NCBI GenBank assembly: GCA_964610875.1
Contig: CAZSWP010000003.1
Span: 1-48,102, forward strand
Source: an uncultured archaeon
GTDB taxonomy: Archaea > Asgardarchaeota > Thorarchaeia > Thorarchaeales > Thorarchaeaceae
DNA length: 48,102 nucleotides
Direction: 5' to 3'
Part shown: positions 6,625-32,209 of the stretch, one piece after another
Layout: each line of letters begins with the position of its first letter
Numbering within the stretch: the first letter of the stretch is position 1
The notes under the pieces: generated by a model
Databases searched by the model: none
What the model was told of the DNA's origin: nothing
What the model saw: only the letters and a program-made list of their open reading frames with translations
Made by a program: the position numbers and the translations under genes

Positions 6625-6723
6625 ATCGGCCTCAATAGTGTCCTGAGGCCGATACCATTTCCTTTGTGTTGGCGGATACGTCCGCAGGGATGTGGCCCTA
6701 TTTGGGCTGAACCACAAACAAAG
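6625..6723 (+). ncRNA. structured 5' leader of rpl15e, candidate ribosomal-protein leader
   Basis: Perfect 10-bp hairpin ATCGGCCTCA/TGAGGCCGAT, then a multibranch CTTTGT/ACAAAG enclosing GCGGA-TACG-TCCGC and GCCC-TATTT-GGGC; lies between a TTTAAG TATA-like box (about 6601) and the ATG. Confidence 0.65.
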
Positions 6724-28733: not shown

Positions 28734-29660
28734 TCATGAAGTGGTCATTATCCATGTTACAAGTCCAGCACTCATTATGAGACCTATGCCATATGCTAAA
28801 TCAAAGTAGAACAATAACGCAGTTGTATCAATGAGTAGAAATACTGCGGTACTCAATCCGAGAAGAATTAACACAGCTAGCACTAGTAGACCCCGCTCAG
28901 CCTTAACCAATGGTTCATCATCGATTGTGAAGACCCTCAAAGAGAGAATGAACACAGGAAATGCAAGTGGGGGAAATATCAGAAGCATGAAACAGGTTGG
29001 GAGTAACATGATACCGCTAAGTTGCATTCGAATTCCGTTGATACGATCAGCATACTTCTGAAACTCTGCTGCATACACCTTACCATGTTCTTTGTAAATA
29101 TGTGTCTGATAACCTTTCCAGAGAGAGAATTTCAATGCGCCAAAACGTTTCTTTATTGCATCGATACGGCTCTCTTCATATTCTGGATTGTATTCACTCT
29201 TGACTACTGGAATGAGATAGACCGTAAGCAGTAATGACCAGACACCATAGAGAGTAATCAGAATCTCAAGCAGAGATAATGTACCAGTTGCAAAAAAGGC
29301 ATCATAGAGCTTCCATCCAGCATAGATGATGATTACAACGAGAGGGATTGTGAGAGCCATTTTCATTCTTTGTGCTTTTGTCTTGTTTCCGCGGATAGTA
29401 TCAGAAACCTGTCTGAACACAAACCCGCCAATGGAAGCATATGTCAGAGCGATTCCAATACCACCCATGAATTTCATGACACTGCCCGATATGGTCAAGA
29501 GTGTGATAAGAGTCGTTGAGTTGAGAATCTGAGTGAGATCCCAAGCATTGACATATAGGAGTACCAGAAAAGCAATTGTGCCAATTATGAATGATAGAAT
29601 GTAGTATGTTCTGAATCTACTGTATCTTTCTTTCTTTCCTAACCCGAGGATACCGCTCAT
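28734..29660 (-). CDS. integral membrane protein of unknown function
   Basis: Start placed at MSGILG because the longer ORF overlaps tRNA-Leu; multiple TMs. Confidence 0.75.
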   Translation of the reverse strand: MSGILGLGKKERYSRFRTYYILSFIIGTIAFLVLLYVNAWDLTQILNSTTLITLLTISGSVMKFMGGIGIALTYASIGGFVFRQVSDTIRGNKTKAQRMKMALTIPLVVIIIYAGWKLYDAFFATGTLSLLEILITLYGVWSLLLTVYLIPVVKSEYNPEYEESRIDAIKKRFGALKFSLWKGYQTHIYKEHGKVYAAEFQKYADRINGIRMQLSGIMLLPTCFMLLIFPPLAFPVFILSLRVFTIDDEPLVKAERGLLVLAVLILLGLSTAVFLLIDTTALLFYFDLAYGIGLIMSAGLVTWIMTTS

Positions 29661-29816: not shown

Positions 29817-29960
29817 GCCGAGATAGCCAAGCCCGGTTAAAGGCGGTGGACTCAAGATCTACAGGCTTTGCTCCGATGAGAAATCCACTCTCGTAGGAGT
29901 CCATGGGTTCACAGCGGATGACTTCCGTCCTCTGGTCTAAGAATCCCATTCTCGGCACCA
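29817..29960 (+). tRNA. tRNA-Leu(CAA) with two introns (37/38 29857-29882; T-loop about 29911-29940), CCA encoded
   Basis: GCCGAGA/TCTCGGC acceptor, GTGGA-CTCAAG|A-TCCAC, long variable arm, ATGGG-TTC|GAAT-CCCAT; BHB helix CTCA/TGAG. Confidence 0.93.
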
Positions 29961-30048
29961 TTTTATTTTCAAAATGAATTTTAGTCAGAAATGAGAGTCA
30001 GGTAAACAAGATGAAAACTAAGAAATTTATAAAATGAAAAAGAAGTAC

Positions 30049-30171
30049 TCACGTTGCCTCTAACGCGAGTATATCTTCCACTGTCAAGCCATTACCTTTG
30101 CGAGGTTTGTATGGCTGGGTCTTTGTGTTGTCTGCAGATGAGTTGTCATCTTGGATAATCATAACAACCAT
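30049..30171 (-). CDS. micropeptide 3 (37-40 aa)
   Basis: MVVMIIQDDNSSADNTKTQPYKPRKGNGLTVEDILALEAT*; followed by a T-rich tract. Confidence 0.5.
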   Translation of the reverse strand: MVVMIIQDDNSSADNTKTQPYKPRKGNGLTVEDILALEAT

Positions 30172-30177
30172 GAGAGC

Positions 30178-30270
30178 CTATCTCCTGAAGTAGACATAAG
30201 CTAGTGCTTTGGTAGAGTCAGCACGCTTGGTGATTCTACGCTGGGTCTTGTTGTCCTTAGCTAGAGCCAT
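30178..30270 (-). CDS. micropeptide 2 (30 aa)
   Basis: MALAKDNKTQRRITKRADSTKALAYVYFRR*; GAGGTGA SD 7 nt upstream. Confidence 0.65.
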   Translation of the reverse strand: MALAKDNKTQRRITKRADSTKALAYVYFRR

Positions 30271-30277
30271 GTTCTTT

Positions 30278-30385
30278 TCACCTCACAACAGTTCTGAATG
30301 CATAAGCAAGAGCATCAGTCTTCTGAGCTTTTGCAGCTTTGTTCTGTGTTCCGTGATTCCGGGTTGTGTTCTTTGCAAACGCCAT
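30278..30385 (-). CDS. micropeptide 1 (35 aa)
   Basis: MAFAKNTTRNHGTQNKAAKAQKTDALAYAFRTVVR*; similar to micropeptide 2; TATA-like box about 35 nt upstream. Confidence 0.62.
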   Translation of the reverse strand: MAFAKNTTRNHGTQNKAAKAQKTDALAYAFRTVVR

Positions 30386-30493
30386 TGTTGTTCACAATAA
30401 TTACTACTCAGAAATAGTATATAATACGAAGCCACGATATAGGGTCACAAAAATAGGTCACAAATTGTTACTAGCTAGAGTAGAAAAATGACC

Positions 30494-32209
30494 CTATTTT
30501 TTGAGTAGTGATAGCATCTTTTTGAGGGGGTGAGCATTAACGACATCTCTCTTTTCTAGCCAGCCACGCCTTGCCTGAAATACACCAAACTTAAGATTCT
30601 CAAGCTCGTAAACGTCGTGCGCATCGGTATTGATGGCAATCTTCAGACCCATTCTTTTTGCACTCCTGAGATTCCCTGCATTGAGATCAAGACGCCTTGG
30701 ATGGGCATTCAGTTCCATGATGATGTTGTTAGTTTTTGCAGTTTCAAAAACAGCCTCCAGGTCAATATCAAACTCAGGTCGTTTGAAAATCAACCGACCG
30801 GTTGGATGTCCTAATATATGGACGTGCTTGTTTTCAAGTGCATGACAGACTCGTTCGGTCATTAATTCTTTACTGTCCTTCATTCTACTATGGATTGAAA
30901 CCGTAACAACGTCCAGTTGTTCAAGAACATCATCTGTTATGTCGAGACCGCCATCACTGAGGATATCGACTTCAGCACCTTTCAGAATCTTCATCTTCCA
31001 GCGACTGGATGCATTGAGGTCGTCTATCTCATCTATCCGTCTTAACAATCGTGTTTCATCCATTCCATTAGCGATTGTCAAACTCTGGGTATGGTCTGAT
31101 ACACAATAGTATTCATAGTTCCTCTGCGCGGCAGCATCTAGCATCTCTTCAATGGTATTGCGACCATCAGACTGGTCTGTATGACTATGTAAATCACCAT
31201 GAATGTCCTTTAATGAGATTAATTTAGGTAATTCGCCCTGTTGAGCAGCTTCTATTTCTCCCTGATTCTCCCGTAGCTCTGGAGGAATAAGGGGAAGGTC
31301 TAGTTTCTCGTAGATTCCAGCCTCATCCTTTCCAGCTATTTGTTTTTCACCTTTGTACAACCCGTATTCATTGAGCTTGTAGCCCTTCTTCTGTGCTAGT
31401 TGGCGGAGTCTTACATTATGATCTACATTACCTGTGAAGTATTGCATACCAGCCCCATAGCTCTCAGAGGGAATGATTCTAAGGTCTACTTGGAGATTGT
31501 TTTCAAGACGAATAGCGGACTTTGTTGTGCCATGAGCAATGATATCAGCAACATCATCAAGATTGACAAATGTTTCCATGACTTTGGCAGGATTATCGGC
31601 ATCTACTAGGACGTCCAAATCTCGTACTGTTTCCCTACGTCTTCTATATGACCCTGTTATTTTCAGTTCCCTGACGTTCTCTAGACTGCCTATCTTCTGC
31701 TCTATCATTTCTGCAATCGGCATCACACTTGCAAGTAGGGACCGACCAATCCCTGATTTCACAAGTTGTATTCCTTCCAGTATCTGTTCTTGTGACTTCT
31801 CACCCATACCAGGAAGAGCAGATATCTTATCCTCCTCTGCTGCCTTCTCTAATGACTCTATATCAATTACTCCAAGTTTCTCATATACAAGTTTGATGGT
31901 CTTTGGACCAATACCAGGGATTGATTGGAGCTCCATAACCTTTACTGGGATTTCCAATCGTAGTTCTTCAAGTACTGTACTTGTACCATTTTCTAAATAG
32001 TCTGTGATTACTTCTGCAATGCCCTTTCCAATACCAGAGATGTCTGTGAGTGTACCTCTTTGAGAGATTGTTTCTATATCTTCTCCAAGAGAACTAATTG
32101 TACGTACTGCACGGTTGAATGCACGTATCTTGAATACATTACTACCTTTCACATCAAGGAGGAGTGCAATCTCTTTGAGAATCTCTGCTACCTCTTTATT
32201 TCTGGTCAT
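30494..32209 (-). CDS. polX: DNA polymerase X with PHP domain
   Basis: GSYRRRRETVRDLD, YFTG, LNEYGL, PPELRE, DLHSHT..SDG, INTDAH. Confidence 0.96.
   Translation of the reverse strand: MTRNKEVAEILKEIALLLDVKGSNVFKIRAFNRAVRTISSLGEDIETISQRGTLTDISGIGKGIAEVITDYLENGTSTVLEELRLEIPVKVMELQSIPGIGPKTIKLVYEKLGVIDIESLEKAAEEDKISALPGMGEKSQEQILEGIQLVKSGIGRSLLASVMPIAEMIEQKIGSLENVRELKITGSYRRRRETVRDLDVLVDADNPAKVMETFVNLDDVADIIAHGTTKSAIRLENNLQVDLRIIPSESYGAGMQYFTGNVDHNVRLRQLAQKKGYKLNEYGLYKGEKQIAGKDEAGIYEKLDLPLIPPELRENQGEIEAAQQGELPKLISLKDIHGDLHSHTDQSDGRNTIEEMLDAAAQRNYEYYCVSDHTQSLTIANGMDETRLLRRIDEIDDLNASSRWKMKILKGAEVDILSDGGLDITDDVLEQLDVVTVSIHSRMKDSKELMTERVCHALENKHVHILGHPTGRLIFKRPEFDIDLEAVFETAKTNNIIMELNAHPRRLDLNAGNLRSAKRMGLKIAINTDAHDVYELENLKFGVFQARRGWLEKRDVVNAHPLKKMLSLLKK

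Follow-up and report, generated by a model that had tools for sequence, protein, structure and literature searches.

A predicted three-microprotein operon with a palindromic operator, present in several copies in genomes of Thorarchaeota

Genes for very small peptides and proteins have been described from bacteria in several forms. The psm-alpha operon of Staphylococcus aureus, with its Pmt exporter, is reportedly a tandem set of leaderless helical mini-peptides that annotation long missed, with a dedicated regulator and a transporter in its regulon. Leaderless bacteriocin operons of Firmicutes (aureocin A70, enterocin L50, garvicin KS) hold two to four paralogous cationic peptides of ~30-45 amino acids (aa) in tandem. 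The alpha/beta-type small acid-soluble spore proteins (SASP) of Bacillus and Clostridium are 60-75 aa, monocistronic, multicopy bulk binders of DNA that are made in a developmental or stress programme and have their own Pfam family, and leader or arrest peptides such as ermCL, the mef/mel leader and TnaC are short open reading frames (ORFs) upstream of resistance or efflux genes. Here we describe an operon of three minus-strand ORFs, encoding the predicted microproteins pep1, pep2 and pep3, that fills an apparent gap between a gene we take to be polX and a tRNA gene in 48,102 nt of DNA from an uncultured archaeon (family Thorarchaeaceae, assembly GCA_964610875.1, contig CAZSWP010000003.1); we refer to this whole stretch as the window. 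The name polX is that of an earlier, sequence-only reading of the window, and the gene itself was not run against Pfam.

To judge by the way its copies vary, the cassette is almost certainly a genuine, translated protein-coding operon. On re-translation we recovered exactly the three ORFs that the sequence-only reading had quoted. Substitutions were analyzed in 28 copies, and the frame of ORF3 in the 22 copies in which the 3' motif is retained. By codon position, nucleotide diversity was.33/.36/.49 in ORF1 and.35/.29/.52 in ORF2, and the median dN/dS, a check proposed in the sequence-only reading, was 0.41 and 0.33, respectively. The ORF3 frame was open in 22/22 copies, without a single in-ORF stop where the two alternative frames have 71 and 43, and began with ATG in 19 copies, TTG in 2 and GTG in 1, placed 5-6 nt past the ORF2 stop. 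In close pairs, the pN/pS of pep3 was 0.59 over its body and 0.36 over its last 12 codons. A six-frame search with a pep1 profile found matches in 73 of the 76 genomes of the window's family (Thorarchaeota), and this recurrence, together with the coding-type pattern of substitution, places the unit beyond chance. Both the reading frames and the 'ALAY'-type motif, whose loss from relatives had been named beforehand as the outcome that would speak against the operon, are conserved.

It is extremely improbable that the region is untranslated and owes its conservation to an element of RNA or DNA. True, no DNA stretches are better conserved than the promoter and the 3' hairpin, and synonymous variation is lowered over the hairpin (pS 0.21 vs 0.35), but the codon-position pattern, the dN/dS values and the upkeep of frame across indels all point to coding, start codons and Shine-Dalgarno spacing are conserved, and Rfam has no matching family, either on the cassette region or on 12 related loci.

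As read from their junctions, the three ORFs are translationally coupled, each Shine-Dalgarno site being built into the Arg codons or the stop of the ORF before it. The intergenic gaps measure 7 nt (ORF1-ORF2) and 6 nt (ORF2-ORF3), in line with the 6-7 nt given earlier. The Shine-Dalgarno site of ORF2 is the GAGGTGA that had been noticed before peptide 2; it spans 30284-30278 and so coincides with the final codons and the stop of ORF1, while that of ORF3, AGGAGA at 30186-30181, is made of the terminal Arg codons of ORF2. The junction sequences GAGGTGA, CGGAGGT and AGGAGRT are conserved in all copies. Chained translation through such sites at the stop junctions would be expected to yield products in a fixed ratio.

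The region upstream of ORF1 is conserved as a promoter with a palindromic operator (Table 1). The operator consensus across the family is AGTCACAA-n-TTGTGACT, and the palindrome is kept in 28/28 first copies and in ~134 units. A direct repeat reported earlier as 'GGTCACAAA' was found on the coding strand as TTTGTGACC, at 30464-30456 and 30451-30443, and its first copy is one half of the 18-nt palindrome TAGTAACAATTTGTGACC. A TATA-like box had been placed at about 30417-30426; it is the strong TATA box TTATATA at 30424-30418. The fixed-spacing pattern TGTGAC-N8-GTG-N10-GTGGCT-N6-TATATA matches 28/28 copies, the window copy exactly. TATA-to-start spacing is standard in archaea, which is the basis for the predicted position of the transcription start, and the 32 nt between TATA box and ATG imply a very short 5' leader of ~8-10 nt that lacks a Shine-Dalgarno site; the mRNA would thus be nearly leaderless. 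The conserved TTGTGAAC at the predicted start also closes a second, GGTCAC-rich promoter type. The proposal of a regulated, self-contained small-protein cassette is therefore supported.

Table 1. Coordinates of the operon, its control elements and flanking genes in the window, and of two genes elsewhere in the source genome that flank a one-mismatch form of the operator
Feature	Position	Strand	Remarks
Palindromic operator TAGTAACAATTTGTGACC	30456..30473	-	18 nt; 20 nt past the polX stop codon
Second TTTGTGACC half-site	30443..30451	-	Direct repeat, 13 nt after the first
GTGGCTT box	30429..30435	-	Conserved; third, degenerate half-site; abuts the BRE/TATA region
TATA box TTATATA	30418..30424	-	32 nt between TATA and ORF1 ATG
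TTGTGAAC	30390..30397	-	At predicted transcription start / short leader; conserved in alignment
ORF1 (pep1)	30278..30385	-	35 aa, net charge +6; coding pattern, alignment
ORF2 (pep2)	30178..30270	-	30 aa, net charge +7; pep1 paralog; coding pattern, hhalign
ORF3 (pep3)	30049..30171	-	40 aa, net charge -2; open frame, alignment A2
3' stem-loop	30042..30075	-	Core arms 30071-30064 and 30053-30046; conserved
T-rich tract CTTCTTTTTCATTTTAT	30029..30045	-	Likely archaeal terminator; inter-copy homology stops here
polX	30494..32209	-	Immediately upstream, same strand; syntenic anchor outside the operon
tRNA-Leu(CAA)	29817..29960	+	Two introns; convergent; syntenic anchor 88 nt past the ORF3 stop
HTH_45 winged-helix gene	C17:4647-4958		104 aa, poly-Lys N-terminus; locus L144, C17:3270-4958
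Bactofilin gene	C17:3273-4535		421 aa

Each peptide has its own conserved motifs. These are MAL(A/T)xN..R, KKN and S-T-x-A-[LI]-x-Y-A-[YF]....R in pep1, MALAK...S-T-K-A-[IL]-x-x-A-Y-F-R-R in pep2 and, behind a variable body, the tail (E/D)(V/I)LALEAT in pep3. The sequence-only reading had derived all three by tandem duplication. For pep1 and pep2 this was borne out by profile-profile comparison (hhalign probability 97.6%, E = 3.6e-12), which identifies them as paralogs that arose by duplication, but we found no evidence that pep3 is kin to pep2. The DN(T)KTQ string that had seemed to link these two is present in the window copy (30255-41 and 30132-15) but absent from a paralogous copy in the same genome and from other species; therefore, we treat the match as chance and not as evidence of homology.

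Pfam contains no family for the peptides even at E up to 10. The best matches in a profile search of the PDB were the N-termini of uS11 and eS1 (E = 0.32 and 0.74), which is noise, and neither PDB profiles nor Pfam gave any significant similarity to ribosomal proteins. The ESM Atlas yielded no usable match for pep1, a search for proteins homologous to pep3 gave no candidates, and the exact peptide sequences are absent from a collection of 15 billion proteins, in agreement with the earlier claim that the ORFs are unannotated. A representative library of 1.84 billion proteins returned 40 matches, mostly family members of ~35 aa; its long matches were considered as informative fusions and rejected, P0001 being a repeat artefact and P0017, P0030 and P0007 mis-called starts or read-throughs (P0028 was not inspected). 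As far as such searches reach, this is an undescribed protein family, and a literature search found no published description of the operon family.

A DNA search of 40 relatives showed that a ~440-nt unit is repeated, with several copies in most genomes of the same family; homology between copies begins at the palindrome and ends after the T-run. The pep1 profile matched 1 to 11 times per genome and had no match in 224 sampled genomes from 29 other families of the phylum, the Asgard-wide comparison that the sequence-only reading had called for. The promoter pattern occurred in more than 115 places in species-representative genomes among the matches listed, where the named sources are metagenome-assembled genomes of Thorarchaeota save a few labelled Promethearchaeota, Hermodarchaeota or 'uncultured archaeon'. 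Every unit found by this pattern leads a pep1-type ORF, and the pattern was not found on viral contigs. Among the genomes sampled, the family is by these profile and pattern matches restricted to Thorarchaeota.

The source genome alone has at least five cassette loci, among them the window copy (C3), another complete copy on C47 (85% identity) and an incomplete one on C8. Between C3 and C47, whose flanks are unrelated, identity is 100% from ~30478 to 30225 (~250 nt, spanning the promoter, ORF1 and half of ORF2), 37-67% in the body of ORF3 and 87% at the hairpin. An identical tract amid unrelated flanks points to recent gene conversion and suggests that the pep1-pep2 module is under selection. 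This genome has a fourth complete cassette, again pep1-pep2-pep3, at C9:72377-72708 (+), with a different, AT-rich promoter; its pep2 is without an ATG, GTG or TTG start and apparently begins with CTG, 8 nt after an AGGAGGT site. At C35:27540-27835 (+) we observed a decayed cassette, preceded by a GGTCAC-rich 'type 2' promoter, in which pep1 is broken off by an in-frame TAA at the beginning of the conserved Q/S-S-T motif; next comes a pep2-like ORF.

Copies recur at the same chromosomal positions. The polX gene lies directly upstream on the same strand in 27 loci, at a median distance of 50 nt; in 10 loci, that of the C47 copy among them, an EamA transporter gene (family confirmed by Pfam on an ortholog) lies upstream, and at C47 a 215-aa membrane protein with no Pfam match follows downstream; and a divergent small protein without a Pfam match is found in 13 loci, as at the C8 copy. 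We presume the latter protein to be ScpB-like from its ScpA/SMC neighbours, an unverified assignment. This conserved synteny at three positions and the lack of matches on viral contigs indicate that the cassette is not mobile. The same evidence bears on the idea of a selfish or defence module, such as one or more small basic toxins with an acidic antidote. A single tightly coupled operon does encode both basic and acidic partners, the family occurs in multiple copies within one lineage, and its acidic partner evolves fast. However, PADLOC, PHROGs and Pfam gave 0 matches, copies sit at conserved syntenic positions across genera (27 loci at polX) and not in islands, viral contigs hold no copies, and nearly every genome of the family has the cassette, unlike the patchy spread typical of addiction modules. 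We consider such a module highly improbable.

The sequence-only reading had pointed to the polX/tRNA-Leu neighbourhood. An orthologous tRNA-Leu(CAA) gene was found by ARAGORN downstream of 13 units, at the polX locus only, and tRNA adjacency was rejected as a mark of integration or a functional link: it is synteny of a single locus, and the copies are homologous only as far as the terminator. The window's own tRNA-Leu(CAA) gene was missed by both ARAGORN and Rfam and was aligned to its orthologs by eye. It has an encoded CCA, an anticodon-loop intron of 25 nt at ~29858-29882 and a second intron of ~30 nt in the T-loop at ~29912-29941, of which other Thorarchaeota orthologs have the first only. 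Just beyond this convergent gene, on the cassette's strand, 28737-29660 (-) encodes a 308-aa multi-pass membrane protein with no Pfam match; read-through from the cassette toward it would first run antisense to the tRNA.

To see how the units are built, ORFs in 113 of them were classified by hidden Markov model. The order pep1-pep2-pep3 of the window was found in 41/113 units. Stand-alone units, which end in pep3, make up 52/113, and 32/113 run into an ORF of at least 300 aa behind the same promoter. The recurrent large ORFs belong to the major facilitator superfamily (MFS), being MFS_1-type in 22 loci and MFS_3 in 17, and the MFS_3 gene begins exactly at the position of pep3. The candidate explanation that pep3 is a remnant or mimic of the MFS_3 N-terminal tail was rejected (hhalign probability 0.3%). 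Extra pep1/pep2 paralogs, up to four basic peptides, precede pep3 or the MFS gene at loci L025 (G011:C21), L039, L059, L092 and L130, so that the number of basic peptides per operon varies.

Longer arrays carry a further element. At L048, L049, L074, L101 and 12 other loci, a conserved stretch of ~130 nt lies between the first and second pep1 and reads as a 45-codon ORF (...GHRTGQLVSETAYHVTNL). As a fourth peptide this ORF was rejected, the stretch being a DNA element full of GGTCAC/GTGACC half-sites. It has a CTATAG box and the TTGTGAA..AT.ATGG start region of the main promoter, and it looks like an internal second promoter/operator, GGTCAC-rich, for further pep1 genes.

The operator also extends beyond peptide and transporter genes. 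In the source genome the perfect palindrome is found at three canonical cassettes only, and a one-mismatch palindrome with a TATA box lies on C17, directly past the stop of an HTH_45 winged-helix gene and before a bactofilin gene. This layout was detected by regular expression in 11/20 family loci, or in ~14 with three one-mismatch sites read by eye, and in 0/10 orthologous loci of other Asgard families. By sequence comparison, then, one promoter is common to the cassettes, the MFS pump genes and, in shortened form, the bactofilin gene; the HTH_45 protein is only a candidate for the regulator. A weak look-alike of the promoter on C27 precedes a 154-aa protein without a significant Pfam match.

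At the 3' end, the sequence-only reading had seen a T-rich terminator after 30049, and a T-run is present at 30045-29, preceded by a hairpin with a folding energy of -18.9 kcal/mol (z = -4.0). Its 12-bp stem pairs the E/D-V/I-L-A codons with the stop codon and downstream untranslated bases, so that the ORF3 stop is enclosed by the conserved hairpin. Covariation in the stem was tested on an ungapped alignment of 46 copies, with the partner strand slid out of register and 500 shuffles as controls. Pairing was seen in 87.5% of cells, as against 27-52% with the partner slid, and double-sided changes in 29 cells as against 8.4 ± 2.4 in shuffles, none of which (0/500) reached the observed value. Synonymous third positions covary with non-coding bases (GTG...GCAC vs GTA...GTAC) and with the stop codon itself (CTC...TGA vs CTT...TAA). 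The lower synonymous diversity of the ORF3 tail is as predicted by an overlapping RNA constraint, and the hairpin probably defines or stabilises the 3' end of the transcript. The hairpin over the ORF3 stop, the multicopy nature of the unit, the sharing of its palindromic operator with MFS pumps and bactofilin, and the doubling of Arg codons as Shine-Dalgarno sites are all features that the sequence-only reading had not described.

These junctions and the hairpin could also be read as those of leader or arrest peptides that act in cis: their translation, possibly in response to a drug or metabolite sensed at the ribosome, would control a downstream gene or the 3' hairpin/terminator. Conservation is concentrated at C-termini beside stop codons, ORF lengths of 27-40 aa approximate that of the ribosomal exit tunnel, each next start site falls within the ribosome footprint of the preceding stop, a ribosome terminating at the ORF3 stop would melt the conserved hairpin that surrounds it, and many units precede efflux pumps. 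Nonetheless, we regard this as very doubtful. The window copy and 52/113 units have nothing to regulate (in the window the hairpin and T-run are followed by the convergent tRNA), pep1, in contrast to pure arrest peptides, shows conservation in its N-terminal and central parts too (M1, A2, N6, KKN), a cis element of single genes would have no use for the homogenisation of multiple copies, and the overlapping Shine-Dalgarno site accounts for the terminal Arg-Arg.

We suggest, tentatively, that the three peptides may form an abundant intracellular hetero-oligomer that binds a polyanionic or helical target and is made as part of an inducible programme. Across the family, pep1 and pep2 have a median net charge of +5 and +6 and a median grand average of hydropathy (GRAVY) of -0.53 and -0.56, with almost no Cys (0.1%), His, Trp (0.1-0.3%), Pro or Gly (~1%). 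Neither has a signal peptide or a stretch of transmembrane grade, the maximal 19-residue Kyte-Doolittle mean being <1.0. From the family alignment, AlphaFold predicted a single helix over residues 10-34 of pep1 (mean pLDDT 67, ~80 over the conserved motif, confidence being good over ~12 residues only) and a disordered pep3 with a short helix at 31-38 (pLDDT 62). In the proposed complex, pep1 and pep2 would be hydrophilic, strongly basic single helices with a small-and-aromatic face, S-T-x-A-[LI]-x-x-A-Y, and pep3 their acidic partner, largely disordered, in which a short helix at the C-terminus is conserved. Candidate targets would be nucleic acid or the ribosome, the inner face of the membrane or a transporter, and a bactofilin scaffold. 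Bulk production might follow when a putative regulator, probably a winged-helix protein, acts at the operator, and the same switch would turn on MFS efflux pumps and the bactofilin gene.

Several observations suggest this arrangement. Synthesis in a fixed ratio suggests a complex, high copy number and homogenisation suggest a bulk product, charge and hydrophilicity suggest an intracellular role in binding a polyanion or scaffold, and a switch shared with MFS pumps and bactofilin suggests a programme of stress or change of state. Other findings weigh against it. The AlphaFold models are merely moderate (pLDDT about 62-67), the body of pep3 is nearly unconstrained (pN/pS 0.59) and, since the charges do not sum to zero over the three peptides, its role as an 'acidic chaperone' is only a guess. 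Pfam, NCBIfam, PADLOC, PHROGs and the PDB hold no family homologous to any of the three peptides, the HTH_45 gene also occurs in Asgard families that have neither operator nor peptides, and co-transcription with exporters suits a model of export about equally.

According to that model, the peptides would be exported as signals, surfactant-like modulins or antimicrobials, with the MFS protein as exporter or immunity pump and the stand-alone cassettes as extra copies of the precursor, as in phenol-soluble modulin (PSM) or leaderless multi-peptide bacteriocin systems. The operons are indeed small, leaderless, multi-peptide and multicopy, the family is lineage-specific and fairly variable in sequence, and 32/113 units continue into MFS genes, with MFS_3, a 'transmembrane secretion effector', starting at the pep3 position. 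We still consider export unlikely. Membrane-active peptides require a hydrophobic face, whereas pep1 and pep2 are hydrophilic (GRAVY ~-0.5), have almost no Trp or Gly and lack such a face; MFS pumps are not known to export peptides of ~30 residues; no ABC exporter, immunity or processing gene recurs beside the cassettes; the acidic pep3 has no counterpart in PSM or bacteriocin systems; and the transcription unit of the window copy is without a transporter. A precursor of a modified peptide, one of the functions proposed in the sequence-only reading, is likewise unlikely, given the near absence of Cys from pep1 and pep2 and the recurrent neighbours found, which are polX, tRNA-Leu, membrane proteins (MFS/EamA/ECF) and genes with housekeeping or small regulatory roles.

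Co-transcription could instead mean that the microproteins are regulators or accessory subunits of the MFS or other membrane proteins made with them, as MntS, SgrT and AcrZ are in bacteria. They are repeatedly co-transcribed with two MFS families, copies in the source genome adjoin membrane proteins (EamA-family and 215-aa at C47, and 308-aa beyond the tRNA in the window), and the conserved A-x-x-x-A and aromatic helix face would suit helix packing. This reading is quite improbable in our view: 52/113 units stand alone and end in pep3, several homogenised copies per genome favour a bulk product over a sub-stoichiometric regulator, the peptides have no transmembrane segment, and the proximity to membrane proteins at C47 and in the window seems to be synteny and nothing more.

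The tentative reading of an intracellular complex can be taken further. One operator and its regulator might co-switch homogenised copies of a three-microprotein complex, MFS pumps and a bactofilin scaffold as an inducible 'microprotein regulon' of Thorarchaeota's own, the basic helical pair coating or remodelling a polyanion or the bactofilin-membrane interface in a transition to stress or dormancy. We think it rather unlikely that this holds in full, but if true, it would represent a new class of archaeal bulk small-protein effectors without a bacterial or eukaryotic homolog. Of all known organisms, Asgard archaea stand closest to eukaryotes, and hardly any of their small proteins have been explored because gene callers skip such short ORFs; annotation pipelines thus miss conserved, highly constrained genes in the 'empty' intergenic gaps of these genomes. 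A whole Asgard family keeps this three-microprotein operon with its own operator, its copies apparently held alike by gene conversion. The operator sequence is a concrete bait for finding the regulator, and an understanding of the mechanism would define a protein family and a regulon, both of them new, and probably a programme of stress or cell state peculiar to the lineage.

Apart from the operon and its relatives, we observed in this Asgard DNA, at 6672-6718 (+) of the window, a match to the Rfam family eL15-Euryarchaeota, a ribosomal-protein leader; at 49.9 bits it exceeds the gathering score.

By the sequence features compared, every known kind considered fails at least one tested defining feature. 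The cassette resembles psm-alpha in its tandem, tiny, leaderless helical peptides, paralogs within one operon, a dedicated regulator, here a putative one, and a transporter in the regulon. There is no sequence similarity, however, and the peptides of Thorarchaeota are hydrophilic and strongly basic where PSMs are amphipathic and hydrophobic; they have an acidic partner, an MFS and not an ABC transporter, an archaeal host and several loci with apparent gene conversion. No Pfam or NCBIfam match places them among phenol-soluble modulins, and a hydrophobic helix face along the whole peptide is lacking. With leaderless bacteriocins they have in common tandem, paralogous, cationic short peptides without a leader. 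Those peptides are rich in Trp, Gly and Lys, hydrophobic and accompanied by ABC transporter and immunity genes, whereas Trp is low, GRAVY negative and chromosomal synteny conserved here; the membrane-active composition is missing, as are adjacent ABC transporter or immunity genes among the recurrent annotated neighbour clusters. Likewise, those clusters include no modifying enzyme of the kind that acts on ribosomally synthesized and post-translationally modified peptides, and Cys is 0.1% in pep1 and pep2, although a GNAT acetyltransferase recurs among the cassette neighbours. Toxin-antitoxin and anti-phage systems are matched neither by family nor by a patchy, island-borne distribution.

Like SASP, the peptides are small helical proteins encoded by dispersed multiple copies with one dedicated promoter type, and bulk action on a polyanion is proposed here by analogy. 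They have no match to the SASP family of Pfam, the coupling of three ORFs and the acidic partner are without a SASP counterpart, and DNA binding by pep1 and pep2 is merely putative. As with leader or arrest peptides, the ORFs are short, have conserved C-termini and may lie upstream of efflux genes, with a stop near the next start or inside an RNA structure. In contrast to such peptides, most units are stand-alone and terminated, pep1 is conserved along its whole length and the copies are multiple and homogenised; a downstream gene that might be regulated is lacking in the window and present in 32/113 other units. What the window copy does share in full is the make-up of its own family: the promoter pattern with its palindrome, and the order pep1-pep2-pep3 with Shine-Dalgarno sites at the junctions and the (E/D)VLALEAT tail within the hairpin.

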